A program made the position numbers and the translations under genes. Below, piece by piece: positions 6,001 through 25,663 of a stretch of 46,425 nucleotides of DNA; the first letter of the stretch is position 1; the number at the start of each line of letters is the position of its first letter. Under the pieces are notes generated by a model. That model saw only the letters and a list, made by a program, of their open reading frames with translations, did no database searches and was not told the DNA's origin. Source of the stretch: an uncultured Methanosarcinales archaeon. Lineage in GTDB: Archaea > Nanobdellota > Nanobdellia > Woesearchaeales > CAZPJY01. Location: positions 1 through 46,425 of the forward strand of contig CAZPJY010000013.1 of assembly GCA_964587045.1 (NCBI GenBank), given 5' to 3'.

Positions 6001-9000
6001 AAGCACAGTGAATGAACCGCCGACTACGAGGTCGCCGCCGACCCCGGCATCGCCTCCTGAGAAGAGAGAGATGCCACCGCTCGCGTTGCCGCCTCCCACA
6101 TCAAGGCTCAACGCGTCAGTGTTGCCTGAAGCATCGACGCTGAACCCGTTCATCGTTATGGAGCCCGCTGTGAGGTCGCCCGCCATGTCCAGGTCGCCGG
6201 TGGCCGCAGTGACGTTGAAGGCGTCGCTCACGTTGAGGTCACCTGCCATGTCGATCGCACCTGTCGAAGACACAACCAGATTGTTATTGACATTCAGGTT
6301 GCCGTCAAGGTTGACGTCTCCGCCCACGTCGAGAGCTCCTCCGGTCAGTGACGGAGAGCTGACGTCGACATTGCCTATCAGGTTCGACGTGCCGTCCACT
6401 TCGAGGCTGCTGTCGATTCCAACAGAACCTGTTGTGTTGAGGTTGCCGTCGGAGTCTATGCGTGTCACTATGCCGTCGCCCGAGTCGCGTATCCTGAACT
6501 CGTTCGCTCCCGAAGCGTCACTCAGGTCGACATAGACGTTGTTCTCGCCTGTGTCGCCGCCGAGTATCATGGCCTCGTAGCCGCTTGAAGTGTAGAAGCG
6601 CAGCGTGTCGTCTGCGGGGTTGAGGCTGACCCTTCCCTGGCCTTCGCCCAGGAAGACGTCGTTGCCCGTTACGTTGAGGTCGTCAGACCCGCCTATGTCG
6701 ACTGTGTTGTCGGAGGAGTCGTAGATGTAGCCGGTGCCGACAACAGCGAAGTTGTCGCCTGAGCCCAGCTGCACCAGGCCGCTGGCCGCGTCGAGGTAGA
6801 GGTCAGACGCCGCGGTGCTGATAGTGTTGTCGTTTGCCATTGCTATCTGGATGTTGTCCACCGATAGCGATTCAGCAACTATCATGTTGCCTGAGGAGTC
6901 CAAGGTCATCTGGGGAGAGCTGATGTTCAGCACTCCGGTGCCTGAGTCGAGGTAGATGTCGTCGACCCCCGCATGGTCTCCCATGGTGAAAGCTCCGCCT
7001 GTAGCGACAGCGCCGCTTATGTCGACAGATCCGTCGACGTCGAGGGTGTCCGAGGGCGTGCCTGCAGAGCCGACCCTGATGCTGCCCGCTGTCAGTGCGC
7101 CTGAGACGTCCGCTGCGCCTCCGACATGCAGGTCACCGCTCATGTTGAGGTCTCCGACTCCCGGCATCGTGGCAGTGCCAAGGGCCGTGCCCTCACCCAC
7201 CGAGAGGTTGCCCTGTATCTGCATGTTGCCGTTCTGGACCGTGTCGCCCGATGCGACCAGGGTGCCCTGGACGGTCAGGTTGCCTTCTATCAGCACCTCG
7301 CCGTCTGAGAGGCTTGAGGCGTCGCATCCGTTGTCGCCGACGCACAGCGCGCCGTCTTCCAGTTCCATGTTGACCGAGCCGGTGCCGTCGTTCTTGCCGA
7401 CATGCACTACGTCTCCAGTGTCGTTGCCCAGGTAGACGTCGCCGTGCAGGTAGGTGTGGCCCTGGACCTCTAGCTCGTCCCTGACCAGGAGGTCTCCCTG
7501 TCCTGGAGTAGCTTGCGAGAGGGTTCCGGTTCCGACCGCCACCGGCTGGGCCTCCTGGCTGTTCAGCCTCAGGTACGCGCCTGAGCTGTCGATGGTGTCG
7601 CCGTTGGCGTAGATGCCCTGCGTGACGTTCAGGGTCTGCTGGACCAGCATGCTGTCCGCTATGGTGACCGGGTCGTCCGCGTCGCTGATGTGCCCGTCGA
7701 TGTCGACCTGCAGGTAGTCGTTGTCCTGCCCGGTCGCCCCGACGCCCACGCGCAGCACGTCTGAGATGTTGACGCTTCCGTTGTACCTGATGGCGTCTGA
7801 GTAGAACACCTTGCCAGAGGTCTGGTAGATGTCGCCGTCGATGTACAGGTCGCCGTCAGACTCGAGCGTGGTTCCGCCGCTCCCGTAGCCTCCGCCGACC
7901 TCGAGATCGTCTCCTGCCGCTATCTTGACAGCTCCGTCCGCCGAGTCGAGGGTGAGGTTCTGGCCGTTGAGGCTCCTGATGACGCTGTCTATGAGCTGCA
8001 GGTTGCTTACGTTGAGCTCAGTGAGCCCGTACATCTGCCCGCCGCCAGAAATGCGCACCAGGTCGTTGACCCAGAGCCCTGAGACGTTCATCTCCTGGAA
8101 CTGTGCGTTGCCCGACGCCCATATGTCGAAGTTGTTGGAGTCAATCCTTATCGGGTCCCCGTCCCCGTCGCCGATGGTCACCGGGCCGTGGAAGGTCGCG
8201 TTGTTCTCCACGAGGAATCCGGTCGTGGAGCCCAAGGTGATGCCGTTGAACTGCAGGTGGTCTCCCAGGATGGTCAGGTTGCCGCTGATGTTCAGGTTCC
8301 CGTTCTGGTCGAAGGTGGCCCCAGTCGAGCCCGCCCCGCCGTTGATGAGAACGACGTCGTCAGGTCCGAGGTTGAGCACTCCGCTGCTTGCGTCAAGGGT
8401 CAGGTCGCCTGATGTGCTCGAGACGGTGTTCGCGTCGAGCCTCAGGCCGTCTATGTTGAGCTGAGTGCCCTGGATGACTCCGGCGCTGGAGATGTTCCAC
8501 TGCGGGTCCCCGGTTATGTCTATCGACGCGGCATCGATCGTAAGGCTTGATGCGTCAACCGATACTGTGTCGTCACCGTTGCCCAGGGATACCGAACCGT
8601 TCACCTCCAGGTTGTTCTGCACGCCGACGTTGTGGCCGACGTTCAGGTCGTATATGCCGGCTGTCGTGATGTTGGTCACGTCAAAGCCCATCATGTCCCA
8701 GTCCCCGCGCATCGCGCCGTCAGTGAGCGTGTTGGTGCCGAGGTCGACAACGCCCAAGTAGGCTGTGCCTGTGGTGGTGATGCTGCCTGCGCCGGTGTCG
8801 AGGCTCGCCGCTGTGACCGCGCCTGAGCTGTCAACCCCGAACTGGTCTGCTGAGCCGACGTACAACGCCTGGAATCCGGCAGAGCCTGTCGTGTTGATCC
8901 AGTCGCTGCCCGTTATCGCCCCAGTCACCTGGAGCGCTCCTCCGACATCTGCGTCGCCCAATACCTCCAGGGTGGCCATGTGCGCTCCTCCGCTCACGTT

Positions 9001-12000
9001 GAGGCTGCCTGTTATGTTGGTCCAGTCGCTTGCGTCATTGCCCAGGAATGAGGTGCCGTTCACGTACAGGTCGCCACCTACCTCCATGTCACCTCCTGAT
9101 TGGATGTTCCCGAAGGTCACGGAGCCGTCCACGGTCAGGTCGCCTCCGAAGAGGGCGTCGCCGTTGTTGAGGATGGACGCGCCGCCTGAAGCGTATCCGC
9201 CGCCGACGTAGAAGTCGGTTGCTACGGCACCGCTCCCGCTGGTGTTCAGCCAACCGTCAGATACCACGTCGCCCGCGTCGATCACGTTGCCGGCGTTGTC
9301 GACCTGGAAGAAGGTACCGGTCCCGACAGTGAGGGAGTCCGCTAGGGCTGTCGCCCCGCCAACCGAGAGGGTGGTTCCGATATCCGCGCCTCCTGTTGTG
9401 ACAATCATGCCGTCCGACGTGATTGAGCCCACATCCGATATGTTGGCGTTAGAGTCGATCCTGAAGTTGCCGCCTGCTGCGTACACCTCTCCTGTCGAGG
9501 GTGATACGTTGAAGCTGTTCCCCCCAACTGTGAGGTGGCCCGTCGAGACTGCAAGTCCGTTGTTGGCTGATACCAGGTCAGTGAAGGTCCCTGTGCCTCC
9601 CACGTTGAGGTCGTTCTGCACTGAGAGCGATCCGGACGCTGGCACTGCAACCGAACCTACCTTGGCGCCGCCCGTTACGTTGAGGTCGCCAGCCATTTCC
9701 ACATCGCCTGTTGCGCCTGACACGACGAAGTTGGAAGTGCCGACAGTCAGATCGCCGCCGTCAACATCCAGACCTGCGTTTGCGTCAATGTTGCCTGTGA
9801 CATCCAATGCGCCACCGATGTGTGCGTCGTCGCTGATGTCAACGTTGCCTGTGATGTTGGTCCAGTCCGCAGCGTCGTCCCCGAGGAAGGTATTTCCGAA
9901 AACCCTGAGGTCTCCGGTGATGTTGTGGTCGCCCTGGGTTACTGTGGAACTCGAGAATGTGGTGGTGCCTGCCACTGTGAGGTCTCCTCCAATGATTGCG
10001 TCCTGGTCTACGGTCAGGCTGTCGGACAGACCCAACGTGCCGTTCGGATACAAAGTCGCACCGCTACCCGAGTAGCCGCCGCCAACCTCGAAAGATTGGC
10101 TTGCGTTCACGCTGACCGCGCCGTCAGAATCGCTAAGGACGCCGCCGGACAAAGCCACACCGCCGTCAGCGTATATCACGCCAGCAGAAGCGAGCTGACC
10201 GGCAGACACAAGACCGCTGAAAGAACCGGAATCCGCGGTGAGAGCTCCGCCAGTCAGGAAAGCGGAACCGTCAGTCAGGTTCGCAGCCTGCACGTCGCCA
10301 GAAGCGGTCAGGTCAGCGATGCCCGACAGGCTGCCAGAATTGAAAGCCCAATCGCCAGAAAGCTGCCCGTCACCAATCGTGTTCTGACCCAAATCAACCG
10401 TGCCAACATAAGCAGTGCCAGCAACAGACGCGCTGCCGCTAGTGTTGATCCAGTCAGATGAGGTGATGAACCCGACAGAGTCCACGTTGCCTGACGTGTC
10501 CACGTGGAAGCTGCCTCCGGCAGTGAGCTCGTTTGCGGTCGCGGCACCGGTCACGTAAAGCGCGCCTCCGATGCCCGCGTCGGCCGAAGTGTTGAGCCAT
10601 CCGCCTGCTGTGATGTCGTTAACGTTCACGATGTTGCCGCTCGTGTCCACAGCGAAGTTGGCCGCGTCGATGTAGTTGCCTCCTGTCGCGTCCTGGCCGA
10701 TGCCTATGTTTCCGCCCCAGACATGCAGGCCGCCGCTCATGTTGAGGTCGCCCACACCTGGCATCGTGGCAGTGCCCAGTGCCGAGCCCTCAAGCACAGA
10801 GAGGTTGCCAAGCACTTCCAGGTTGCCGTTATTCATCTGGATGCCTGAGACGTTGAGGTCGCTCAAGTATGACGAGCCGAGCACCTCTATGCTTCCGGTG
10901 ACGAGCAGGTCGCCGGCTCCGGTGGCGTACGCGCCTGCCGATGAGCCGACCCTGACGGGCGCCGCGGCACCTGCGTTCAGCACGAGCGGTGCTCCCGCTG
11001 TGTTGATGAAGCCGCCGTCCAGTACCAGGTTGCCTTCAGTGCTGATGTTGCCGTCAGCTGCGATGGTCGCGCCGCTTCCGTAGCCGCCTCCGATGTCGAG
11101 GCTCAACACGTCGGTGTTGCCTGACGAGCCGACAGCGAATCCTGTCATTGTTATGGAAGCAGCAGTCAGGTCGCCGGCCATGTCCACATCGCCGGTCCCT
11201 GATGACACGTTTAACACGTTGCTGACGTTGAGGTCGCCGGCCATGTCGATTGCGCCTGCCGAAGAGGCCAAGAGATTGTTGTTGATGTTGAGGTTGCCGT
11301 CAAGGTTGACGTCGCCGCCCACGTCCAGAGCGCCGCCTGTGAGGGATGGCGCGCTGACGTCGACGTTGCCCATGAGCGCGGAATCCTGGTCGACAACTAG
11401 GCTTCCGTCCATCCACACGGATCCCGAGCCGTTGAGCAGCAGTCCGCCGTCGCCCACGCCGTAGCCTCCTGCAGCGACGACCGCGCCTGACTGGTAGTTC
11501 ACGCTGAATATGCCGTGGCCTCCGACCGACAGGTTCCCACCTGTCACGTCCAGTCCGCCTGATACGTCGAGATTCGTGGCAGACAGGTCACCGTCCACGA
11601 TGAGGTCGCCGCCCATGAACAGGCTGCCGTTGGGGTAGAGGGAGTGCCCTCCTGATGTGTAGCCTGATGCCACGTCGAGGGATGATGCGTTGGTCCCTCC
11701 TGTAGTGCTGACCGCGAATCCGGTCATGGTGATAGAGCCTGCAGTCAGGTCGCCTGAGACGTCGGTGTCACCAGTGCCTGAGGCTACGCTGAAGACGTTG
11801 CTCACGTTGAGGTCGCCGGCCATGTCCACAGCGCCGGAAGTCGAGGCAACGAAAGCGCTGCCTCCGACAGTCAGGTCAGCGCCAGTCACGTTAAGCCCTC
11901 CCTGAGCGTCGACATTCTGCTGGAACGCGGCCTGCTGGCCCACGTCGAGCGTGCCGTCGAACCTCGCATCACCTGATCCTGTAACATAAGCGGAATCGCC

Positions 12001-15000
12001 TGCCATCCTGACAGCGCCTGTCTGGTAGTTCACGCTGAAGATGTCATGCCCGCCGACTGAGAAGTTGCCTCCGTCTACGGCAAGTCCTCCGTCAGCTGAG
12101 AAAGTGCCTCCGACAGAGAAGTCGTTGTCCACGTACAGGCTGCCGTTTATCGCCATGCTGCCGTTTTGGAACAGCGACTGGCCGCCGCCTGTCCCGAAGC
12201 CTCCTGCGACGTCTAGCGACGAGGCCTGAGTGTAGCCTGACGGGCCGACAGAGAACCCGGTCATAGTTATGGTGGAAGGCGAGAAGTCTCCTGACAGGTT
12301 CGCGTCTCCCGCGGTGCTCACGTTGAAGACGTTTGCGACCAGCAGGCTTCCAGCCATGGTCGCGGCTCCTGCGGTGGTTACCTGGAAGTTCGAGCCGCCG
12401 ACCGTCAGTGCTGCTCCCGTGACGTCCAGGCCGTTCCTGGCGTCCAGGTTGCCCGCAACGCTCACAGCGTCAGCCATGAAGGTGGTTCCTCCCTGCGACC
12501 CTAATGCCAGGTTCGCACCAGTCGTGTTGATGCGCGCGAGGTTGTCTGAGTTGTTCGCGTACAGCGCGAGGGCGTCGATTCCGTCTCCCACCTCGACAGC
12601 TGAGCTCAAGGCTGAGGCTCCTGTGATCTGCCTCCCGTCGACGTAGGCGTCCTGCAGCGAGTGGGTTATGTCCTGCGAGCCGTTGACTATCTCCTCCAGC
12701 TTGGTGTCGATCGCGTCTACTGAGGATGTCACGTCCTGCCCGTCCGTGACTACGAAATCTTCTGTGTAAGTCTGGGTGCCTATGGCAGCATCGAGATCTC
12801 CCACTGCGGTCTCGAGATCGTCGTTCTGCGTTATGACATCGGCGCTCGAGTAGGTGGGCATGTCCTCAGAGTTGCTCGCCACTCCCGTGAAGTTCTGCAG
12901 GTTGTCTATCTGCTGCTCCAGGCTCGCTGAGTCTTCTTCTGCTCCGACTCCTGTGCGGGTGTTGAGCTGCGCAATGTCCACACCGTCGACGGTGCCGTCT
13001 AAAACGATGTTACCATTGGAGTCGAGAGTGACGCTTCCGCCAGAGCCTGCCGCGACGAGCACGTCGCCTGCTCCGGTGTTGTTCAGTACGAGCAGCGTCC
13101 CAGCAGCTGAAGCCTCGAGGCGTTCCGCCTGGTCGTCGTTTATGTAGCGGGAGTCGCCGTACTGCTGGCTGACAGCGTCGGTTGCGCCTGTCGCGTCGGC
13201 AAGCCCAGTCATGCGGTTGCCGTTCACGTCCAGCAGGTTGCCCACGTCGGTCGTGCCTGCCGTGACGTTCAGCACGTTCTGGACGTTGAGGTCGCCCTGC
13301 AGGTACGCGTCCGAGGTCACGAGCAGGCTGCCTGTGACGTTGGTCCAGTCAGCTGCGTTGTCGCCCAGCATGGTGTCCCCCTGCACGGTCAGGTCTCCTG
13401 TGACTGTCATATCGCCGTCCTGGGTGAACGGCCCCTTGAACTGAGTCGCGCCTTCCACCACCAGGTCGCCGTCCATCGAGAGGCTTCCGTTCTGGTAGAC
13501 CGTCGCGCCGCCGTATGGCACTCCGGTGTAGCCTCCGCCTACCTGGAATAGCTGGCTTGAGTTGACGCTCACCGCGCCGTCGGTGTCGCTGATCGTGTCG
13601 CCAGACATGACTATGTTCTGCAGCCTTGAGGTGCCGGTCACCGTGAAGTCGTCGTCGACGCGCACCGGACCCGTGTTGTGCACCAAGTCGCCGTCTGACT
13701 GGATCCACAGGTAGTCGGAGTCGATGGTCCCAACCTTGAGGTCCAGCTCGTACTCGCCGCTGGCGTTGAACACCTCGGTGTTGGCGGTCCAGCTGCTCCC
13801 GTTGAAGAAGAGCGCTCCTGAGGTGAAGAGTCCGTTCGAGTCGATCGTGGTGCCGCCGAACGCGAAGCCTCCCTGTATGTTGAGGTCGCCGTCAATAGTC
13901 AGGTCACCGCCGGCCCGCACCTCACCGGTCGCTGCCGTCACGTTGAATGTGTTGCTGACCAGCAGGTCGCCGTTCATGCTGACCTGACCCAGCCCTGACG
14001 CGTCGCCTGACGCGGTTATGTCCCAGTCGTTGCTGTCGATCGCAACAGTGGTCGCCCCATTGCCTACCGTGAAGGCGCCTGTGCCGAAGACGGCGCTGCC
14101 TGTCAGGGTTCCGCCTGTAATAGTGGCGGTATTCACCGTGCCCAGGGTCGCGTTTCCGTCCTGGTCGATTCCCCACGAGCTTCCGCTGATGACAATCGTG
14201 TCAGCCCCGTCACCGAGGTATATGGGGCCAGTGAGGTTGGTCTTGCCGCCGACGTCGAGATTTCCGGAAAGGGCTGCTGATGAGGCTGATAGGCTCGTTG
14301 CGGTTATCGCTCCTGCACTGTCGACGTGGAACTGGTCTGCGCTCCCGGCGTAGAGGTCTGAGGATATTCCTGCCGAGGTCGCATTGACCCACGTGCCTGC
14401 CGCGATGGCCTGCGACACGTCAAGGTCGCCTGTTACGTCAAGGCCGCTTCCTACGGTCGCCGCTCCCGTTATGTCGAGGCCGCCGGTGACAGTGGTCGTG
14501 TCGCCCGACTCGTTGCCTAAGAAAGTGTCGCCGTCGACCCTGAAATCTCCTGTGACGTTGAGGTCTCCGTCGTTTACTACTCCTCCTGTGAAGGTGGTCA
14601 GGCCTCCGACGGTCAAGTCGCCGCCTACGCTCGTGTCCTGGTCTACGGTCAGGCTGTCGGACAGACCCAACGTGCCGTTCGGATACAAAGTCGCACCGCT
14701 ACCCGAGTAGCCGCCGCCAACCTCGAAAGATTGGCTTGCGTTCACGCTGACCGCGCCGTCAGAATCGCTAAGGACGCCGCCGGACAAAGCCACACCGCCG
14801 TCAGCGTATATCACGCCAGCAGAAGCGAGCTGACCGGCAGACACAAGACCGCTGAAAGAACCGGAATCCGCGGTGAGAGCTCCGCCAGTCAGGAAAGCGG
14901 AACCGTCAGTCAGGTTCGCAGCCTGCACGTCGCCAGAAGCGGTCAGGTCAGCGATGCCCGACAGGCTGCCAGAATTGAAAGCCCAATCGCCAGAAAGCTG

Positions 15001-16623
15001 CCCGTCACCAATCGTGTTCTGACCCAAATCAACCGTGCCAACATAAGCAGTGCCAGCAACAGACGCGCTGCCGCTAGTGTTGATCCAGTCAGATGTGCTC
15101 AGGTAGCCGTTCGTTATGAGATTGCCGCTCGGGTCTACAAAGAGATTCTCTCCTGCAACCAGGAGCGACCCTGAGATGTTGCCGTCGCCGTCCACGAGCA
15201 GGCGTCCGTCGATCTCAGCGTCGTCAGTCACGAACAGGTCTGCCGCAGCGTCTGAACCGAAGTCCAGGCCGTGCGAGGTCGAGCCTGTCCCGATGACCAG
15301 GCTTCCTGTCATGGTGTCGCCGGTCTCGTCGACCCAGTCGTCGGTAGCGGCCGTCATGAAGTATGATGAGTCGAGCCCGTCGAGCAGGTCTGCAGATAGG
15401 TTGGTCGTGGTGGTGTTGGACGCGACTACGAACGGCGAGGTGCCGAAGGACTGTACAGACTTCAGGCGGTTGCCCTGCACCAAATTTGTCGCTGTTAAGT
15501 CCTGGACCGCGAATGATGCGGAGTCGTTTAGGTCGTCAGGGTTTACGCTGTCTGATGCGTAGCTGAGGGTGGTAAGCGAGTCGTCAGCGATGTCCGCGTC
15601 GGTGACCGTATCATCCTTTATGTCGGCCGAGGTGATGTTATCATCTTGGATTACGCGGCTGGTGACAACTCCAGTTGCGAAGTCGCCTTCATCAGATAGC
15701 CCTGCGGGAGCGATGTCTGATGAGGTTAGGGTCGCGTCCTTGATATCGTCGGTGGTAAGGTTGTTGTCCTGAACGCTCGAGCTCCAGACCTCGCCCAGGC
15801 CGATGTCCTGCACCTCTATGCAGCCTGAGCAGTTCAGGTCCGCAAGGAGGTTTAAGTCACCAAACATATTGTCGCCGCTCTCGTTTATCCAGTTGTCAGG
15901 TAACGAGTCTAGGGGGACGTCGCTCAGGCCTGAAGCGTTGCCGTATATCACTCCTCCGAACTCGATGTCGCCTGCGACCGTGAGCTCACCGGCAGAGTTG
16001 GCGTAGACTGTGGGCCCGGTGCCGAGCGAGGTGAGGCCGCTGACGTTTAGCGTTCCTGACGTCACCACGTTGCCCGTGTTGTCCGCGACGCTGAATGCCT
16101 CAACTATGATTCCTCCGTTGAAGTCGACGCTGCCGTTGAACACGCCAGTGCTGCTCACGTACAGGTCGTTTCCGGCTGTCATGGAGCCGTCGATGAGGAG
16201 GTTGCCCACTGAGTCGATGGTCGCTCCTGTGCTGCCGTAACCTCCGAGCAGGAAGAGTGCGTCGCCTGCGCCTGGTGTCAGGTTGATGTCAGAGCCTGCC
16301 TCCAACAACATGGGCCCTGAGGCGTCGATGGTGAAGGTGTCCGTGGCTGTGGTCCAGTACATGTCTGCGAAGCTGGTCGATTCTCCCAGCCTGAAGTGCA
16401 GGTCGACCGTGTTGTTGGTGAGGTTGAGGTCCCCCCAGAAGGTGTCGCCCCAAAGGTTGGCGTAGAGCATGTCGTGCCCGGGGTTGGTCCCGTAGTCTAT
16501 AGCTACCGCTAGGTTGGGGGTGCAGGCGAGCAGCGCCACCACGATAACAATGAGCCGTATGATCGACTCATCTGGGCCGCGTATGGCCCATGCGGCGTTG
16601 TCCATTTGCTTGCCTGCTCTCAT
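1..16623 (-). CDS. Giant secreted repeat protein (>=5541 aa, 3' end outside the window); fibre/adhesin-like surface protein
   Basis: ATG at 16623 follows a GGAGGT Shine-Dalgarno (16631-16636). The N-terminus MRAGKQMDNAAWAIRGPDESIIRLIVIVVALLACTPNLAVAIDY has a hydrophobic signal-peptide-like stretch. The same frame still reads sensibly at position 1 (...LTGALTANGQVTLGDD). The ORF track reports no terminated ORF in this frame, which implies no internal stop. More than 20 GGGYGxxGxT-type repeats are present. Confidence 0.93.
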   Translation of the reverse strand, partial: MRAGKQMDNAAWAIRGPDESIIRLIVIVVALLACTPNLAVAIDYGTNPGHDMLYANLWGDTFWGDLNLTNNTVDLHFRLGESTSFADMYWTTATDTFTIDASGPMLLEAGSDINLTPGAGDALFLLGGYGSTGATIDSVGNLLIDGSMTAGNDLYVSSTGVFNGSVDFNGGIIVEAFSVADNTGNVVTSGTLNVSGLTSLGTGPTVYANSAGELTVAGDIEFGGVIYGNASGLSDVPLDSLPDNWINESGDNMFGDLNLLADLNCSGCIEVQDIGLGEVWSSSVQDNNLTTDDIKDATLTSSDIAPAGLSDEGDFATGVVTSRVIQDDNITSADIKDDTVTDADIADDSLTTLSYASDSVNPDDLNDSASFAVQDLTATNLVQGNRLKSVQSFGTSPFVVASNTTTTNLSADLLDGLDSSYFMTAATDDWVDETGDTMTGSLVIGTGSTSHGLDFGSDAAADLFVTDDAEIDGRLLVDGDGNISGSLLVAGENLFVDPSGNLITNGYLSTSDWINTSGSASVAGTAYVGTVDLGQNTIGDGQLSGDWAFNSGSLSGIADLTASGDVQAANLTDGSAFLTGGALTADSGSFSGLVSAGQLASAGVIYADGGVALSGGVLSDSDGAVSVNASQSFEVGGGYSGSGATLYPNGTLGLSDSLTVDQDTSVGGDLTVGGLTTFTGGVVNDGDLNVTGDFRVDGDTFLGNESGDTTTVTGGLDITGAATVGSGLDVTGDLDVSQAIAAGTWVNATSAGISSDLYAGSADQFHVDSAGAITATSLSASSAALSGNLDVGGKTNLTGPIYLGDGADTIVISGSSWGIDQDGNATLGTVNTATITGGTLTGSAVFGTGAFTVGNGATTVAIDSNDWDITASGDASGLGQVSMNGDLLVSNTFNVTAATGEVRAGGDLTIDGDLNIQGGFAFGGTTIDSNGLFTSGALFFNGSSWTANTEVFNASGEYELDLKVGTIDSDYLWIQSDGDLVHNTGPVRVDDDFTVTGTSRLQNIVMSGDTISDTDGAVSVNSSQLFQVGGGYTGVPYGGATVYQNGSLSMDGDLVVEGATQFKGPFTQDGDMTVTGDLTVQGDTMLGDNAADWTNVTGSLLVTSDAYLQGDLNVQNVLNVTAGTTDVGNLLDVNGNRMTGLADATGATDAVSQQYGDSRYINDDQAERLEASAAGTLLVLNNTGAGDVLVAAGSGGSVTLDSNGNIVLDGTVDGVDIAQLNTRTGVGAEEDSASLEQQIDNLQNFTGVASNSEDMPTYSSADVITQNDDLETAVGDLDAAIGTQTYTEDFVVTDGQDVTSSVDAIDTKLEEIVNGSQDITHSLQDAYVDGRQITGASALSSAVEVGDGIDALALYANNSDNLARINTTGANLALGSQGGTTFMADAVSVAGNLDARNGLDVTGAALTVGGSNFQVTTAGAATMAGSLLVANVFNVSTAGDANLSGDFSPSTITMTGFSVGPSGYTQASSLDVAGGFGTGGGQSLFQNGSMAINGSLYVDNDFSVGGTFSADGGLAVDGGNFSVGGHDIFSVNYQTGAVRMAGDSAYVTGSGDARFDGTLDVGQQAAFQQNVDAQGGLNVTGADLTVGGSAFVASTSGAVDMAGDLNVSNVFSVASGTGDTDVSGDLTAGSITMTGFAVSTTGGTNASSLDVASGYTSGGHSLYPNGSLFMGGDLIVDGDLSATNLDVSGGLDVTGGNLSVGGHGIFSVNYQSGAVVAAGGYGVGDGGLLLNGSGSVWMDGSLVVDQDSALMGNVDVSAPSLTGGALDVGGDVNLDGNLNINNNLLASSAGAIDMAGDLNVSNVLNVSSGTGDVDMAGDLTAASITMTGFAVGSSGNTDVLSLDIGGGYGSGATIAADGNISTEGNLVLDGGFINTAGAPLVLNAGAAAPVRVGSSAGAYATGAGDLLVTGSIEVLGSSYLSDLNVSGIQMNNGNLEVLGNLSVLEGSALGTATMPGVGDLNMSGGLHVWGGNIGIGQDATGGNYIDAANFAVDTSGNIVNVNDITAGGWLNTSADAGIGGALYVTGAATANELTAGGSFHVDTSGNVDSVGFITSSDWINTSGSASVAGTAYVGTVDLGQNTIGDGQLSGDWAFNSGSLSGIADLTASGDVQAANLTDGSAFLTGGALTADSGSFSGLVSAGQLASAGVIYADGGVALSGGVLSDSDGAVSVNASQSFEVGGGYSGSGATLYPNGTLGLSDSLTVDQDAIIGGDLTVAGTTTFSSSTVTQGDHNITGDLRVFGNTFLGDDAADWTNITGNVDISDDAHIGGALDVTGNIDANAGLDVDGGDLTVGTSNFVVSGATGDVEMAGDLNVTGGAKVGSVAVPASGSLSVQNDLNVGGTGTFTDLVSANNGLAVSTGHLTVGGNSFNVSPSTGEVYAAGGNFRIDSNANISDVGSITSDGMIVTTGGADIGTTLSVGGATALADSLTVGTGTFFQVDNAGNVIDAGDVVSDGWLNTSGSGAVATDFYVGGGYASGGASILNNGDALFGGDLTVDGSVTFGNIQSGGDMEVGGDLYVNGTSFLGNDASDWTNITGSLNVSGGAHMATLEVLGDADVGGALQVTGAITGSDWINTTGSAGFQALYVGSADQFGVDSSGAVTAASLDTGAGSITTTGTAYLGVVDLGTNTLTDGAMRGDWDMMGFDVTNITTAGIYDLNVGHNVGVQNNLEVNGSVSLGNGDDTVSVDASSLTIDAASIDITGDPQWNISSAGVIQGTQLNIDGLRLDANTVSSTSGDLTLDASSGVLNLGPDDVVLINGGAGSTGATFDQNGNLNISGNLTILGDHLQFNGITLGSTTGFLVENNATFHGPVTIGDGDGDPIRIDSNNFDIWASGNAQFQEMNVSGLWVNDLVRISGGGQMYGLTELNVSNLQLIDSVIRSLNGQNLTLDSADGAVKIAAGDDLEVGGGYGSGGTTLESDGDLYIDGDIYQTSGKVFYSDAIRYNGSVNISDVLRVGVGATGQDNDYLQVDIDGHISDADDPVTIADSMLVQQTLNVTQGIYANGDTIDSSGAYLRLNSQEAQPVAVGTGTLSQATPGQGDLLVRDELEVQGHTYLHGDVYLGNDTGDVVHVGKNDGTGSVNMELEDGALCVGDNGCDASSLSDGEVLIEGNLTVQGTLVASGDTVQNGNMQIQGNLSVGEGTALGTATMPGVGDLNMSGDLHVGGAADVSGALTAGSIRVGSAGTPSDTLDVDGSVDISGAVATGGAFTMGDHAGVDDIYLDSGTGVLNISSPQMTLDSSGNMIVAESLSVDNIQIAMANDNTISTAASDLYLDAASGLVQLGSGDNFAVVGTGYIYDSSDNTVDIGGSDDLNVTGNDVFLGEGQGRVSLNPADDTLRFYTSSGYEAMILGGDTGENNVYVDLSDASGANEFRIRDSGDGIVTRIDSDGNLNTTGSVGIDSSLEVDGTSNLIGNVDVSSPSLTGGALDVGGDVNLDGNLNVNNNLVVSSTGAIDMAGDLNVSDAFNVTAATGDLDMAGDLTAGSITMNGFSVDASGNTDALSLDVGGGNASGGISLFSGGDAGVGGDLVVGGSFTVLGGQSINGGLQVTGGDFSVSGGYGSTGATIYDTNGSAAFDGNVRTDANMYVGTGGYNRVNLGGGDLVVSDQLEVNGVLYADSTVQIADSSNTALTVTGGISAGGGNLLVDSSGGLTSNTWINTSGGAYVGGKILSASGANVYGTIDMNENTITNVSNLYVGSIANDDDTYVTVADDLVVTGLGTSSFANTLNVSGAFNANGPVNLGDGGDSVTIDSSNWGITAAGVGTGFNSWTVDNVQVGTNGDQLIDTSSGDLELDAAGDVMVLTNLNVSGAALDVGSGNFVVTSSNGYADVASPANTGGALDVGGNVNIDGDVTVFGDNVDSSGQNLTLNALSNLPVVIGDNAGEVGEYVSGNGDLLVTGDLEVEGNTFLNNLNIEGVQFSSGNLNVDGYLNVTGGTSLGITNIPGSGDLTVQDELEVGGNARFNGTVGINDMSPDASLDVQGNLLVGGTEGQQFSVDASGHLSDANEALTIDDSLNVTGATRIGDGNDAVFINSGSGSFQLESSGLDVLTTGTITGAAGADIGNTTYEWNEIYLDDSGAIIFGASQDVQLSRIGPNMLQLDDGFNVTGGLEVGNGYDSSGTTIFANGTVGIGGNLKVDGSFVVSGGQTINGGLQVTGGDFTVSNGYGNTGATITDTDGDVLSNGNGTFDDSVKVGTGFDNRVGMEDGAAADLFVSDDLEVDDTAYIEGTLNVYGASNLGDGDDNVVINAGSGQFTLASSGLNVVAGGTITSAAANADLGDTNNEWDQVYLDADGGIYFGDSQDVYLHRNTAGNNMLTLDDSMNITGSLDVGTGNASTGMTIYSNGDFGTVGSGYLEGGLGVGTMPGGTGNIDLSGDLTANSITMNSFSVASDGSVSAQNGLAVSNADFTVDTDRFTVTTGTGAIAIAGGYGDANGGATVDQYGNLSTNSNIVVAGGFVETAGAPLILNSGVANEVRIGDGTPTASQGDGQNDLFVTGDLEVDGTAYINNLDVGGVQMNSGNLAVQGHLNVTQGTALGTAVIPGAGDLNMSGDLHVLGGNIGIGQSATSGNYIDSQNFDVATSGNVVTAGTVTINDNTATALNVVGGAVLGNQPGTDLVDIGADVELNGGICVGSTDDCLPPADGAIHAYVDNSGTPNEATAAGDIYAENDLEIDGSSFLGDNSGDNIYLGNGTNDNVVITDGQWSISGTGDVQTSGTITSTNSGTSLTLTGGISASGTNFVVSNTGGHITGVGNIISDGWVNTTGNMHAATGLHVGEGYGNTGLTADTNGNLNLNGDFQADGSANIGAGSNDYAGTDNGDLHLADDFEVDSNALVQGSMGVGTNPVGPDSGNLIVANNFSAASGTFTVDSSGNARAGGGSGNTGATLFENGNLSIDGDLVVGGTLTTGGQDLSGDLDVGGGYGSGGATIYSGNGSGGFEGNLHTDGAIYVGAGTQSLVDGSAGDVFVSDQLEVNGNAEVDGTLGVDGNLYDISQDALTLDDDLNVIGTTPEITIGDNGQENVMMQFDAQDQDFYVGVPDATDDFEIGTGTTLGSNVRVTVESNGYVGINDTTADATLDVDGTALIGREGLQLAISNDGVLSDVDDSSVTVNDGLTVTGATLLGDGNDAIDLNAGSGQFTLTSSGFNVSSGGTIASASANANIGGTNNEWNQVYLDADGGIYFGDSQDVYLHRNTAGNNMLTLDDSMNITGGLEVGGGYDTSGTTLYSNGSVGVSGNLRVDGDFVVTGTQNINGGMTVTGGNLTVGSGGEFSVNYQNGAVWMADGNAFVTSAGAAELNGGYLYVGANTPTVVDSSGGDLLVSDDLEVDGTMTLQGANAVGTAASIGDGSNYALIYATSGSAAYSSNGANNIEIIAGGNYVTVDDVLNVTGVVNALSDVNIGTLTTLYSDGTADFGGGYGSGNGVSITNSGDIWVDGDIVFQGDVLSADTESFNASMGVEGSLCIGGPGGCTPTAGYGNLDVNGTTDLGATGNELRISNDGYLSDTDDAVTVNDDLSVALTTTLTGALTANGQVTLGDD
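1001..1120. repeat. Near-identical internal repeat (second copy ~3653-3772, diverged third copy ~4308-4420)
   Basis: The string gtgagcatgttgtttccggcggtgttcct(g/a)tgcaggtagacatcctgggaatcgccgaagta occurs twice. It encodes NEW(N/D)QVYLDADGGIYFGDSQDVYLHRNTAGNNMLTLDD. Confidence 0.8.
10000..10460. repeat. 461-bp exact direct repeat, copy A (in frame inside the giant gene)
   Basis: Identical by eye to 14635-15095. The offset of 4635 bp is a multiple of 3, and the antisense shadow ORFs in the track give identical peptide. Confidence 0.92.
14635..15095. repeat. 461-bp exact direct repeat, copy B
   Basis: Identical to 10000-10460; encodes SDWINTSGSASVAGTAYVGTVDLGQNTIGDG...GGGYSGSGATLYPNGTLGLSDSLTVDQD. 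Confidence 0.92.
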
Positions 16624-16645
16624 GGGTCGCACCTCCTGTAGAAGA

Positions 16646-16841
16646 CCTCTGCCATGCCCCCAGCGGGTAGACCGGAGGCATGACAGAGGCATGTCGCCAA
16701 TGTGAAAAATCCCCCTGCCACCCTCCCGGTAGGTAGGCCGGAAGAGTGGCAGAGGTAAGTCGCCAAAAGTGAGAAATCTGCCATGCCCCCAGCGGGTAGG
16801 CCGGAGGCATGACAGAAGTATGTCGCCAAAAGTGAGAATCC
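16646..16841 (-). repeat. Three tandem ~63-66 nt units, each a long hairpin plus a TCACwTTGGCGAC-type linker, in the predicted 5' leader of the giant gene
   Basis: Hairpins lie at 16646-16689, 16712-16755 and 16777-16816. Stems are 16-18 bp on the minus strand with G-U pairs. Loops are UCUACCCG, CCUACCUA and CCUACCCG. Confidence 0.88.
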
Positions 16842-16902
16842 TAAGTATGCCGCTTTGTGTGCAGGTGTCAGAATAGGCGTAGAGGGGTCTCCCCCACCCC
16901 CC

Positions 16903-16928
16903 TGTATATACATACCTCTTTTTTTCCC
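16903..16928 (-). promoter_or_regulatory. Putative archaeal promoter (A-rich tract plus TATATACA) for the giant gene
   Basis: The minus strand reads GGGAAAAAAAGAGGTATGTATATACA. It is the only TATA-like element I see between the RHH gene and the hairpin array, implying a start site near 16880. Confidence 0.5.
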
Positions 16929-16945
16929 TACACTACCCAACATAA

Positions 16946-16962
16946 TGGCGACATACCTCTGT
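16946..16962 (+). promoter_or_regulatory. Inverted copy of the leader-unit motif TGGCGACATACCTCTGT
   Basis: Matches the minus-strand unit motifs TGGCGACATGCCTCTGT, TGGCGACTTACCTCTGC and TGGCGACATACTTCTGT with 1-2 mismatches, in the opposite orientation. Confidence 0.7.
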
Positions 16963-17045: not shown

Positions 17046-17207
17046 TCACTCCTCTTTGATGAATTTCCTTAGGCTGGTGTTTTTCACTGCCTCTCGCATC
17101 ATGAGCTCGACCTTGGAGCTTATCTTCATGCCGTTGCGTTCGCAGTAGCCTTTGAACTCCTCAAAGACGTGCTCGTCGATGGTCATCGAGATCTTTTTCT
17201 TAGCCAT
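17046..17207 (-). CDS. Small ribbon-helix-helix (CopG/Arc-like) DNA-binding protein, 53 aa
   Basis: Below the ORF-track cutoff; translated by hand as MAKKKISMTIDEHVFEEFKGYCERNGMKISSKVELMMREAVKNTSLRKFIKEE. The pattern of beta strand KKISMTID, helix, G, helix is typical of RHH proteins. TATTTAAA lies about 30 bp upstream. Confidence 0.8.
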   Translation of the reverse strand: MAKKKISMTIDEHVFEEFKGYCERNGMKISSKVELMMREAVKNTSLRKFIKEE

Positions 17208-17387
17208 ATTTATCTATATTTCTGGGGTTGGTCCTTTAAATAGGTTTCTATTTTTTACCGGTCTCACCCGAGCATAATTTTACACTCAGGGCAGCATAAT
17301 GAACTACCAGTATAGTCATATCACAATTAACCATTGTGAACGACCGCTGAAAAGGTTTTTTATATACGCTGTTTTACATGCAGCACG

Positions 17388-18946: not shown

Positions 18947-20065
18947 TCATTTCTTCCTTATACCGATGATGCTCAAGAAGAAGGCTGAGAAGAAGAGCAT
19001 CATACCAACCATGAGTATGGTAAGCGAAGCTATGCCCTGGCGGAGCTCGTCCAGCGGTCCGAAACCGCTCATGATCCATAGTACCACAATCCTCAGTCCC
19101 AGGAATAAGCCGATGAGGATTATTATCGAAGATAGCAACATGCCCCTCTCGAGCGGCATGAGCCTAAATAGCTCCTCTGCAAGCCTGCTCCGCTCCCCCA
19201 GGTGCACGTGGGCAAAGACCTTGGCAACGGTGCCCATGATGATCAGCATGGTGCCCGAAAGAGTCAGCACTGATCCCACGATTATTGGGTGGATGTCGAA
19301 GGTGAAGCCTCCGATGGTCTGAGGCCCGATGCTGAACGCAACCAGCAGCACCAGCCCGATTACAGAAAGCGCCGCGCCCGGCGCGAGGAACAGGACGGTC
19401 GGGCTGTAGAGGAGCATGAAGCGGAGATGACGCCAGCCGTCCCTCCAGCTGTCCAGCGACGATGAACCGCGTCTAGGATAGTATGTGATGGGGACCTCCT
19501 TGATGCGAAGGCCTCTCTTCACCGCCTTGATGACCATCTCTGAGGCGAATTCCATGCCTGTCGTCGTGAGGGACAGTCTCGCGAGCGCGTCCCTCCTTAT
19601 CATGCGGAAACCGGAGTGCGCATCGCTTATCCTGGAGCCGAACATCATATTCAGGGCAAACGTCAGTAACGGGTTTCCCAGGTAGCGGTGGAGGGCAGGC
19701 ATCGCCCCTGGAAGTATCCTGCCCTTGAAGCGCGAGCCTATGACCATGTCGTAGTGGGACGAGTACCGGACCAGCCTCCCCAGCTCCAGGAAGTTGTAGG
19801 TGTCGTCGGCGTCGCCCATTATGATGTAGTCGCCCTTGGCTGCGCGGAAGCCGGCCATGAGCGCTTCGCCGTACCCCTCCTTGTGGTAGACCACCTTGGC
19901 GCCCTTCCTACTTGCTATGATGTCAGAACCGTCCTTCGACGAGTCCGAGACGATTATCTCATAGGAGGCGGTCATGCTGCTGAAGGCTTCCCTTATCTTG
20001 TCTATGCAGATGCCTATGGTGGCAGCTTCGTTCCTGCACGGCAGGACGACTGAGTACTTCATCAT
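18947..20065 (-). CDS. GT2 glycosyltransferase (polyprenol-phosphate glycosyltransferase/DPM1-like) with C-terminal TM helices
   Basis: SVVLPCRNE, DADDTY (DxD), GSRF, DAHSGFR and EFASEM motifs; hydrophobic C-terminus. Confidence 0.9.
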   Translation of the reverse strand: MMKYSVVLPCRNEAATIGICIDKIREAFSSMTASYEIIVSDSSKDGSDIIASRKGAKVVYHKEGYGEALMAGFRAAKGDYIIMGDADDTYNFLELGRLVRYSSHYDMVIGSRFKGRILPGAMPALHRYLGNPLLTFALNMMFGSRISDAHSGFRMIRRDALARLSLTTTGMEFASEMVIKAVKRGLRIKEVPITYYPRRGSSSLDSWRDGWRHLRFMLLYSPTVLFLAPGAALSVIGLVLLVAFSIGPQTIGGFTFDIHPIIVGSVLTLSGTMLIIMGTVAKVFAHVHLGERSRLAEELFRLMPLERGMLLSSIIILIGLFLGLRIVVLWIMSGFGPLDELRQGIASLTILMVGMMLFFSAFFLSIIGIRKK

Positions 20066-20093
20066 GCGAACAGACGAATGTCAATATAAAAAA

Positions 20094-20351
20094 CTAGTGC
20101 TTGAAGCGGTCTATCGCATATGAGGCGAGAGCGACCGCGCAGACGACCAGGTTGACCGCCCAGAGGTTGAAGGCGCTTATGGCAGAGAAGGCTGCGAGTG
20201 CCAGGCCGGCGGTCATGTTGAGCAGTACTGATACCGCCACAGAGTAAGCGAACAGCGCGATGTTGTTCCTCGGCCTTATGAAGGCTATCGTGACCAGGAA
20301 ACCTGGGATGAAGACGATGAAGAGCGTCCGTATTATCAGCATCAGCACCAT
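20094..20351 (-). CDS. Small membrane protein (about 3 TM)
   Basis: 85-aa hydrophobic ORF (FIPGF motif) just upstream of the GT2 on the same strand, with TTTATATTA upstream. Confidence 0.65.
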   Translation of the reverse strand: MVLMLIIRTLFIVFIPGFLVTIAFIRPRNNIALFAYSVAVSVLLNMTAGLALAAFSAISAFNLWAVNLVVCAVALASYAIDRFKH

Positions 20352-24961: not shown

Positions 24962-25663
24962 ATGGTATTTGACGCTCTCCTGGGAACACCGAAAAAGCTT
25001 CCCAAGCACCTGGCGATAACAACAGAAGGGAGCATTGCCTGGGCCAATTCTGAAGGCAGGCCAGTGCATGAGGCCTTCCAAAAGAAGTTCGCCAACATAG
25101 AGGCAGTGATACCCTTAGCGGTCAGGTTCAACATCCCCGTGCTCACCTTCCACCTCTTCAGGGGAGAGGTCAAGGAGCACTTCGAGGACATGCTCGACGC
25201 GATGACCCACTTCTTCGACCGGCTGAAGGAGAGCGGCCTGGTCCACGACAACCAGATCAAGGTTTCAGTGCTGGGCAAGTGGTACGACCTGCCGGGCGCT
25301 GCTGTCGGCAACATCAAGGACCTGCTACAGGCCACAGGCGGATACGACCGCTTCTTCCTCAACTTCTGCGTTAACTACTCAGGCCAGCAGGAGATCGTGG
25401 ACGCGTGCAGGCTCATAGCCCGGAGGATCGAAGCCGGGAAGATGAGAGTAGAGGAGATATCCAAGGAAACCATCAAGGAGAACCTGTACACCTCGTATTT
25501 CCTGCCGCCCCAGGTGATAATCAGGAGCGGGACCAGGATGAGGCTCTCAGACTTTCTGATATGGGACTCGCCAGGTGCCTTCGTCCACTTCTCAGGCAAG
25601 CACTGGCCTGCGATGGGAAAGAAAGACATCCTGGACGCGCTCGACGTCTACAGCAAGTCATGA
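24962..25663 (+). CDS. cis-prenyltransferase (UppS) family protein with degenerate active site
   Basis: PKHLAITTEG, NFCVNYSGQQEIVDA and IIRSG..RLSDFLIWD...WP motifs. Confidence 0.85.
   Translation: MVFDALLGTPKKLPKHLAITTEGSIAWANSEGRPVHEAFQKKFANIEAVIPLAVRFNIPVLTFHLFRGEVKEHFEDMLDAMTHFFDRLKESGLVHDNQIKVSVLGKWYDLPGAAVGNIKDLLQATGGYDRFFLNFCVNYSGQQEIVDACRLIARRIEAGKMRVEEISKETIKENLYTSYFLPPQVIIRSGTRMRLSDFLIWDSPGAFVHFSGKHWPAMGKKDILDALDVYSKS

Follow-up and report, generated by a model that had tools for sequence, protein, structure and literature searches.

The window analysed here is a 46,425-nt stretch of DNA that makes up an entire contig (CAZPJY010000013.1, C13 in our numbering) of an archaeal genome of the Woesearchaeales type. 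On its minus strand, three hairpin units sit between a small gene for a putative ribbon-helix-helix (RHH) protein (17046-17207) and a giant open reading frame (ORF). We give a probability of about 0.5, on comparative sequence evidence, to the reading that these hairpins belong to a conserved predicted structured leader RNA placed between the RHH gene and the giant surface-protein gene, and that this RNA likely serves as a gate for translation of the latter. The array in the window is an expanded form of a leader element that is conserved in this archaeal order, is supported by covariation and is absent from Rfam.

The three tandem units, each 63-66 nt long, occupy positions 16644-16838. Tandem Repeats Finder (TRF) reported 3.0 copies at 16648-16838 with a period of 63 and a score of 227, and a repeat search of the window returned three copies at spacings of 66 and 63. 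A unit consists of a linker followed by a hairpin: unit 1 (16775-16838) carries hairpin 1 (16777-16816; 17 bp, 3 G-U), unit 2 (16708-16774) carries hairpin 2 (16712-16755; 18 bp, 3 G-U), and unit 3 (16644-16707) carries hairpin 3 (16645-16690; 20 bp, 5 G-U). The respective loops are CCTACCCG, CCTACCTA and TCTACCCG, the linker consensus across units is TCAC(T/A)TT(T)GGCGAC, and T-rich linkers come after hairpins 1 and 2 (TTTCTCACTTTT and ATTTTTCAC). The stem sequence of unit 2 departs from that of units 1 and 3 through compensating changes, with three pairs changed on both sides and three on one side (from G-U to Watson-Crick). Over the three units all 52 of 52 cells are paired, nine of them as G-U and none as a non-pair, so that every stem mismatch is a G-U on the mRNA strand. 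When nine random substitutions were simulated in 32 stem bases, all 16 pairs were retained in 213 of 1,000,000 trials.

RNA of the minus strand between 16610 and 16900 folds at -142.7 kcal/mol (z -7.8; none of 200 shuffles as good), whereas the plus strand of the same region folds at -108.9 kcal/mol (z -2.2). The same strand difference is seen for hairpins 1, 2 and 3 taken individually (-31.6, -35.2 and -37.6 on the minus strand vs -20.5, -25.6 and -24.5 on the plus strand). Among all uninterrupted stems of at least 13 bp in the 1.6-Mb genome, those of 20, 18 and 17 bp ranked first, second and joint third, the last in a tie with a stem at C1:108524. A first-pass annotation of this DNA had described three tandem hairpin units before the giant gene, their loops and linker, a Shine-Dalgarno (SD) sequence before its ATG, an open frame of more than 16.6 kb, and stem mismatches that are G-U in the transcript; TRF, the fold z-score, the stem ranking and the poorer folding of the plus strand bear this description out.

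A further part of the structure lies upstream of the array. The sequence at 16946-16962 on the minus strand (ACAGAGGTATGTCGCCA), which we call the anti-linker, is complementary to the linker before each hairpin (inverted repeats I1-I3) and can form the 5' strand of a long-range helix, P1. The 17-nt inverted copy corresponds to the linker plus the first stem bases, and the three copies of the P1 3' strand are found at 16812-16828 (unit 1), 16750-16765 (unit 2) and 16683-16704 (unit 3). With up to one mismatch allowed, the anti-linker 16-mer has only these four sites in the genome. The predicted anti-linker/linker duplexes in the window range from -27.8 to -32.7 kcal/mol.

Direct searches with the array were unproductive, and relatives were reached by searching for the RHH protein. 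Of 401 genomes of the order, 28 carry the RHH gene, at 29 loci in all; nine of these loci, from six families, have the same module 3' of it (this window, G065, G059, G326, G167, G248, which is the same place as locus L053, G099, G232 and G058). The module opens with an anti-linker, which an ATG follows after 0-4 nt; a spacer of 65-149 nt then leads to a linker with a hairpin of 10-20 bp, a pair present one to three times. It occurs at one locus per genome. The G065 locus is orthologous to that of the window: its RHH protein is 76% identical, TRF reports 2.8 tandem copies (three hairpins) with a period of 57, an SD (AGGGGTGG) and an ATG follow the array, and a leader ORF of 114 codons ends as an ATGA overlap. 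In L053, the module stands before a gene of 1649 amino acids (aa), and in L105 the period is 52. No module was seen in three metagenome loci or in L063, L064 and L066. Since detection required a stem of at least 10 bp or a contiguous duplex, weaker versions could escape it.

Both helices show covariation among these loci. For the hairpin, counts were made on alignment A4, restricted to the six of 14 units with 10-bp stems: all 60 cells are paired, six of ten pairs are changed on both sides, and none of 500 shuffles reaches the observed score, while slid registers pair 33-50% of cells. When all 14 units are included with their own folds, 11 of 22 stem columns are changed on both sides; such tables, projected from each sequence's own fold, count pairs only. 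With both transition mismatches allowed, the 14 units of the nine loci contain 161 Watson-Crick, 23 G-U and 4 A-C cells, and all four A-C cells are at the loop end. The excess of G-U over loop-end A-C cells argues that the hairpins are RNA read on the strand of the gene, because a DNA palindrome predicts no such pattern. The sense strand gives the better hairpin fold in eight of 14 units, by 2.6-13 kcal/mol, and the antisense strand in the other six, by 0.6-1.2 kcal/mol. As the first-pass annotation had proposed, the array is most likely a cis-acting structured RNA read on the minus strand, and it is conserved with covariation in eight other genomes.

For P1, counts were made on a plain MAFFT alignment (A6) of six of the nine loci, three loci of the G059 group being left out because their linker was misaligned in A5. 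In A6, 95 of 102 cells (93.1%) are paired and nine of 17 pairs are changed on both sides; the covariation score is 0.557 vs 0.295 in shuffles, none of 500 shuffles reaching it, and slid registers pair just 23-56% of cells. The anti-linker of each module locus forms a duplex with its own linker at -24 to -38 kcal/mol (z -5.4 to -9.7), and much weaker duplexes with linkers of other clades. At all nine loci, P1 either stops 0-4 nt short of the leader ATG or contains it. P1 is present in the minimum free energy (MFE) fold of each of the nine leaders, in which the ATG region is paired (mean unpaired probability 0.00-0.34), and forbidding P1 costs 9-26 kcal/mol. The initiation region of the leader ORF is thus predicted to be base-paired within a conserved helix. 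The final 5-7 bases of the linker serve both P1 and the base of the hairpin (alignment columns 29-35), so that the hairpin either abuts P1 or competes with it.

The ORF that starts at this ATG is itself a constant part of the module. In the window, the leader ORF (16620-16943, minus strand, 107 codons) begins with an ATG 3 nt past the anti-linker and crosses the three units; its TGA stop and the ATG of the giant gene overlap as ATGA. A leader ORF is open from the conserved ATG in nine of nine loci, over 58-122 codons; in shuffles the frequency of such openness is 0.016 for the window and 0.0001-0.10 per locus over the nine loci, and the other two frames of the leader contain 1-14 stops. The encoded peptide is not conserved: L112 and L113 differ at sites spread over the three codon positions (16/20/15), unit-to-unit differences in the window are nearly all non-synonymous with pairing retained, and the reading frame across the homologous unit is not the same in the window and in L053, owing to a 5-nt linker indel. 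Since the ORF is open in all loci and its peptide is not conserved, it seems that the act of reading is maintained and not the product.

The end of the leader ORF is tied to the start of the main gene. The junction is ATGA in the window and in G065, and TGA-A-TTG in L101, with a gap of 1 nt; in L053 the leader ORF is fused in frame to the 1649-aa gene, L112 has a more complex junction, and contig ends truncate three loci. In the window, the SD of the giant gene (AGGAGGT, 16631-16637, minus strand) lies 7 nt 5' of the ATG at 16623, inside the end of the leader ORF and a few nt past the last hairpin. The giant ORF (1-16623, minus strand) extends for 16,623 nt, or 5541 codons, to the contig edge, and its product begins with a membrane or signal segment.

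A promoter matrix was trained on 728 upstream regions of the genome, with GAAAAnTTTATATA as the resulting consensus. In 190 of approximately 364 high-scoring upstream regions the motif ends 18-24 nt 5' of the ATG, a distance at which most genes of this genome look leaderless; in such a genome the SD-led start of the giant gene fits an internal cistron. The RHH gene has a promoter-like B-recognition element (BRE)/TATA sequence (GAAACCTATTTAAAGG, 17233-17248, minus strand) 25 nt 5' of its ATG, which scores 13.9 bits, and its equivalent is the top promoter match in each of the nine module loci. This BRE/TATA is, judging from the sequence, the probable start of an operon transcript. For comparison, the promoter of the divergent neighbour gene (motif at 17351-17366, plus strand) scores 13.5 bits, the median real promoter 11.0 bits, and the genic background 4.5 bits at the 95th and 9.5 bits at the 99th percentile. 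The TATA-like element that the first-pass annotation had placed in front of the array is present (AAGAGGTATGTATATA, 16905-16920, minus strand); it lies within the leader ORF and, at 5.8 bits, is a weak promoter candidate next to the 13.5 and 13.9 bits of its neighbours. It is not conserved among the module loci, and no conserved promoter is found 5' of the leader ATG in the nine loci. With a weak, unconserved site and an array that is inside a leader ORF, the region is probably not a plain 5' untranslated region (UTR) behind the TATA-like element.

We propose that the transcript would begin at the RHH promoter, in which case the 5' strand of P1 would be present in the RNA. At equilibrium, P1 would mask the start of the leader ORF. 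Were P1 open, ribosomes would read the leader ORF and melt the hairpins, then terminate on the ATGA and presumably re-initiate at the start of the giant gene; in archaea, such overlaps are reported to couple termination to reinitiation (PMC6728339). Loading of ribosomes before the linker is transcribed would be one route to an open P1. The hairpin may hold the linker once P1 is open, and three units would give three chances of closing P1. A strict two-state switch is not required, because P1 and the whole hairpin coexist in the MFE folds of L092, L105 and L107.

That same coexistence is one of several points that weigh against a gate on translation. The RHH gene occurs without the module in 20 of 29 loci, and three of the module loci (L092, L105 and L107, from G059, G326 and G167, respectively) end at contig edges within or just past the repeats. 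The strand signal of P1 is weak, with seven G-U vs two internal A-C cells (the latter read from the alignment), and the antisense P1 duplex is the better one in L112 and for unit 2 of the window. The leader ATG has no well-placed SD, and the giant gene, having a strong SD of its own, might initiate independently. The spacer contains a weak promoter-like site of 5.8 bits here and one of 10.6 bits in L053, and if such a site were the sole start, the 5' strand of P1 would be absent from the RNA. Finally, masking of the leader start leaves unexplained why a hairpin constantly follows the linker.

Four other explanations were weighed against the gate. The hairpins and P1 could act on mRNA stability, as an exonuclease barrier or a processing site between the RHH and giant messages that protects the 5' end of a message needing many minutes to make. 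Individual hairpin energies of -17 to -38 kcal/mol, a last hairpin that finishes a few nt before the SD, and genes for two beta-CASP nucleases and two RNase PH (exosome) subunits in the genome are compatible with such a role, and 5' stabilisers are known in bacteria (PMC3997798). We nevertheless regard it as unlikely, since it would account neither for the conserved anti-linker/linker pairing, nor for the position of the ATG beside P1, nor for a maintained leader ORF with its ATGA junction, and since the module also precedes genes of ordinary large size. Control at the level of transcription, either by processive antitermination or by attenuation with a hairpin plus U-tract terminator and the anti-linker as antiterminator, is a quite unlikely reading of the same structure. 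In its favour are the great length of the gene, an anti-linker that overlaps the stem base in the fashion of an attenuator, and T-rich linkers after hairpins 1 and 2 that resemble terminator tracts, hairpin 2 alone being called terminator-like; yet no T-tract follows the hairpin in L092, L105 or L107, or hairpin 3 here, and P1 takes away just 5 of the 17-20 stem pairs in the window. There is also no match to put, EAR or any Rfam family, and hairpin-dependent termination is, to our knowledge, not established for archaea. The first-pass annotation had suggested processive antitermination for giant genes, and this link is not supported: the module also stands before the 1649-aa gene of L053, and none of ten other large genes inspected in the genome (1381-7789 aa) carries the element. 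Recurrence with covariation, which it had named as support, was found in eight related genomes; a tie to gene length was not.

An element acting as DNA is highly unlikely in our estimate. Inverted arms of 14-24 bp flank 65-149 bp upstream of a surface-protein gene, a gene for an RHH protein of the DNA-binding type always adjoins, and in the window and L053 the arms enclose weak promoter-like sites, so that the arms might be operators of the RHH protein flanking a promoter or the ends of an invertible (phase-variable) promoter segment. Invertons are described as common before surface genes in bacteria, and the genome has three tyrosine recombinases. Symmetry of DNA, however, does not predict stem mismatches that are G-U on one strand (23 vs 4 loop-end A-C), and the RHH beta-strand, K(I/V)(S/T)MTI(D/E), is invariant while the arms differ greatly between lineages. 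A DNA-level role is further disfavoured by the lack of a recombinase gene within the window, by the fact that all nine loci were assembled in the orientation with an open leader ORF, and by the occurrence of one module locus per genome. Least probable of all is that the ORF from the ATG at 16943 encodes the N-terminal part of the surface protein, with 21-residue repeats to which the hairpins are incidental. Repeat periods of 63, 66 and 63 (57 in G065) are multiples of three, the leader ORF is maintained, and its L053 counterpart forms an in-frame fusion with the main protein. A protein repeat does not fit, however, with unit differences that are almost all non-synonymous yet keep the pairing, with the change of frame over the homologous unit between the window and L053 (the 5-nt linker indel), with the absence of codon-position bias between L112 and L113 (16/20/15), with the period of 52 in L105, or with a leader ORF that has no Pfam match. 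Translational control, one of the roles offered by the first-pass annotation, fits best; that account had the structure of the locus right and missed the RHH gene, the inverted linker copy upstream and the leader ORF with its ATGA.

A gate of the proposed kind would share features with several known systems. In the 'Min Jou' interaction between the coat and replicase cistrons of phage MS2, a distant helix closes the start of a cistron and ribosome traffic opens it. There, as predicted here, the initiation region of one cistron is paired with a distant sequence; here, unlike in MS2, the predicted partner strand is downstream within the masked ORF and occurs in up to three copies, each with a stable hairpin behind it, in an archaeal host. 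In translational attenuation of the ermC/cat type and in trp-type attenuators, a translated leader ORF overlaps alternatively pairing RNA segments. The arrangement upstream of the giant gene would be similar here, but the leader ORF is far longer, its peptide is unconserved, no stalling signal is known in it, the masked site would be its own start, and a terminator U-tract is not conserved. HK022 put and Bacillus EAR likewise are structured leader hairpins of very long transcription units; in contrast to them, the element has no Rfam sequence or structure match and the family is not tied to gene length. We know of no archaeal counterpart of such processive antitermination RNAs. The stabiliser hairpins of the ompA 5' UTR (cited in PMC3997798) also lie just 5' of a ribosome-binding site; the hairpins described here are not at a mapped 5' end, are located within an ORF and go together with a long-range helix that is conserved. 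ATGA coupling systems of archaea and bacteria (PMC6728339) resemble the overlap of the leader TGA with the main ATG in the window and G065, and the stop 1 nt before the start in L101; they differ in that the upstream partner here is a non-conserved leader ORF (62-123 codons in L101, the window, G065 and L112) and not a protein gene, and that in L053 it is fused in frame.

The top Rfam 15 matches in the window were microRNA models with E-values of 1.4-7.2 and 15-18 bits vs gathering scores of 74-88, and the loci of eight relatives gave no match at E<=0.1; the expectation that the array would match no described family thus held. BLAST with the array against its own genome and 60 relatives produced short chance matches only. 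A covariance model built from the three units of the window (R1) was the sole model used for copies away from RHH genes. It found this locus only in the genome and, in 150 other genomes of the order, one weak match (G021, E 0.0125) that aligned without a stem. A strict 26-base pattern had no match in collections of genome, metagenome and viral contigs; a looser pattern matched four viral contigs, where R1 gave a short-stem partial alignment (22.8 bits) at two loci and a weak one (11.7 bits) at two. A miniature inverted-repeat transposable element or other dispersed repeat (of the repetitive extragenic palindrome or bacterial interspersed mosaic element kind) was rejected, since both BLAST and R1 find this locus alone in the genome and G401 holds only the RHH-linked unit. 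Inspection of the units by eye revealed no unique spacers, pockets or boxes, and a CRISPR-like array, an H/ACA or C/D small RNA and a K-turn were dropped on these grounds. No conserved loop or bulge suggesting a ligand pocket was seen in the module loci. A canonical -1 frameshift from the leader to the giant frame was also dropped, as no slippery heptamer precedes a hairpin (by eye).

Several smaller features accompany the array. The MFE fold contains a small G-rich hairpin in the spacer (16876-16900, minus strand), and a degenerate partial copy of the linker without a hairpin (GCGGCATACTT, 16843-16853, minus strand) lies directly 5' of unit 1; it may be the remnant of a fourth unit. In L105 a third linker is found at the last bases of the contig, and the arrays of L092, L105 and L107 may exceed their assembled length. 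Three DNA sequencing runs cover the region of the window solely as pieces of 151-263 nt, and beyond an identical X1 piece the array is unspanned in them.

The RHH ORF encodes 53 aa. Its Pfam matches are DUF6364, RelB, CcdA and RHH_5 at E 0.002-0.2, all under the curated cut-offs, and JGI labels its relatives as antitoxins of RelBE/YafQ-DinJ modules. In a relative from run X3 (90-99% identity), all seven differences inside the ORF fall on third codon positions, which argues that it is a real gene. In a sample of 401 genomes of the class, it was found in six, all members of this same order, and the nearest records that carry it are metagenome-assembled genomes titled Woesearchaeota, Nanoarchaeota or Nanobdellota, which places the source among the DPANN archaea. 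Most RHH genes have, 17-70 nt downstream, the start of a gene whose large product carries a signal or membrane segment at its N-terminus; in the nine module loci the module widens this gap. In L102 (G388) and L109 (G286), the RHH gene overlaps the next gene by 4 nt, and the product of the latter resembles, by eye, a toxin-antitoxin-type nucleotidyltransferase (L102) or a HEPN protein (L109); it follows from these overlaps that the RHH family also serves other two-gene cassettes. Small ORFs are also located 5' of other giant genes of the genome (C16, ~34650-34978; C20, ~25150-25500; C27, ~19950-20247). They share ..LEA(V/I)..YL(K/I)(D/E).., two of them also ..R(T/D).(T/R)(I/V)WT.YQ.., and they look by eye like helix-turn-helix regulators. 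Different large surface genes thus seem to own separate small upstream regulator genes.

No Pfam domain in the giant protein exceeds the cut-off. At the N-terminus it is homologous to the protein encoded after the three-unit module in G065 (E 8e-14); apart from G065, a search of 400 other genomes with this N-terminus gave low-complexity matches alone, in ten of them. Residues 468-797 recur about 1540 residues further on at 68% identity (9601-10581 vs 14224-15220, minus strand). The gene may continue on another contig. Continuation on C1, where a frame of 8507 aa is cut by the contig start, was dropped, since no similarity was found and several other contigs are also candidates. Co-oriented giant open frames of 8507, 7789, 3879, 1924 and 1359 aa together fill ~70 kb there (C1:1-70353), and further open frames of 1900-2700 aa are found on C10, C7, C20, C16 and C36. 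On C10, a tyrosine recombinase gene (7931-8359, minus strand; Phage_integrase, 58.8 bits) is directly 5' of, and overlaps, the extended frame of a giant gene (C10:1-8033), a context that may be mobile or phase-variable. The genome as a whole comprises 1.6 Mb in 50 contigs with 53% G+C, a partial 16S rRNA in it is archaeal (820 bits), and the remainder of the window holds ordinary chromosomal genes, including those for EF-2, EF-1alpha, an L7Ae-family protein, parts of HypD/E/F and glycosyltransferases.

Enormous surface proteins are a feature of DPANN cells, which live attached to hosts. Archaea have very few known cis-regulatory RNAs, and we know of none described in DPANN, although our literature searches were not aimed at this point. 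A more specific proposal, which we hold tentatively and at somewhat less than even odds, is that the element represents a hitherto undescribed family of cis-regulatory RNAs in DPANN archaea of the Woesearchaeales type, which would act as a co-transcriptional translation gate. P1 would mask the start of a long leader ORF that is free in sequence and whose stop is welded to the start of a large or giant surface gene, the hairpin behind each linker would lock the open state, and the costliest proteins of the cell, probably those of host contact, would be made only if ribosomes load fast enough. With two covariation-backed helices and a maintained leader ORF wired to large surface-protein genes in six families, the element offers a testable handle on the switching of giant surface genes and a seed for a new RNA family model.

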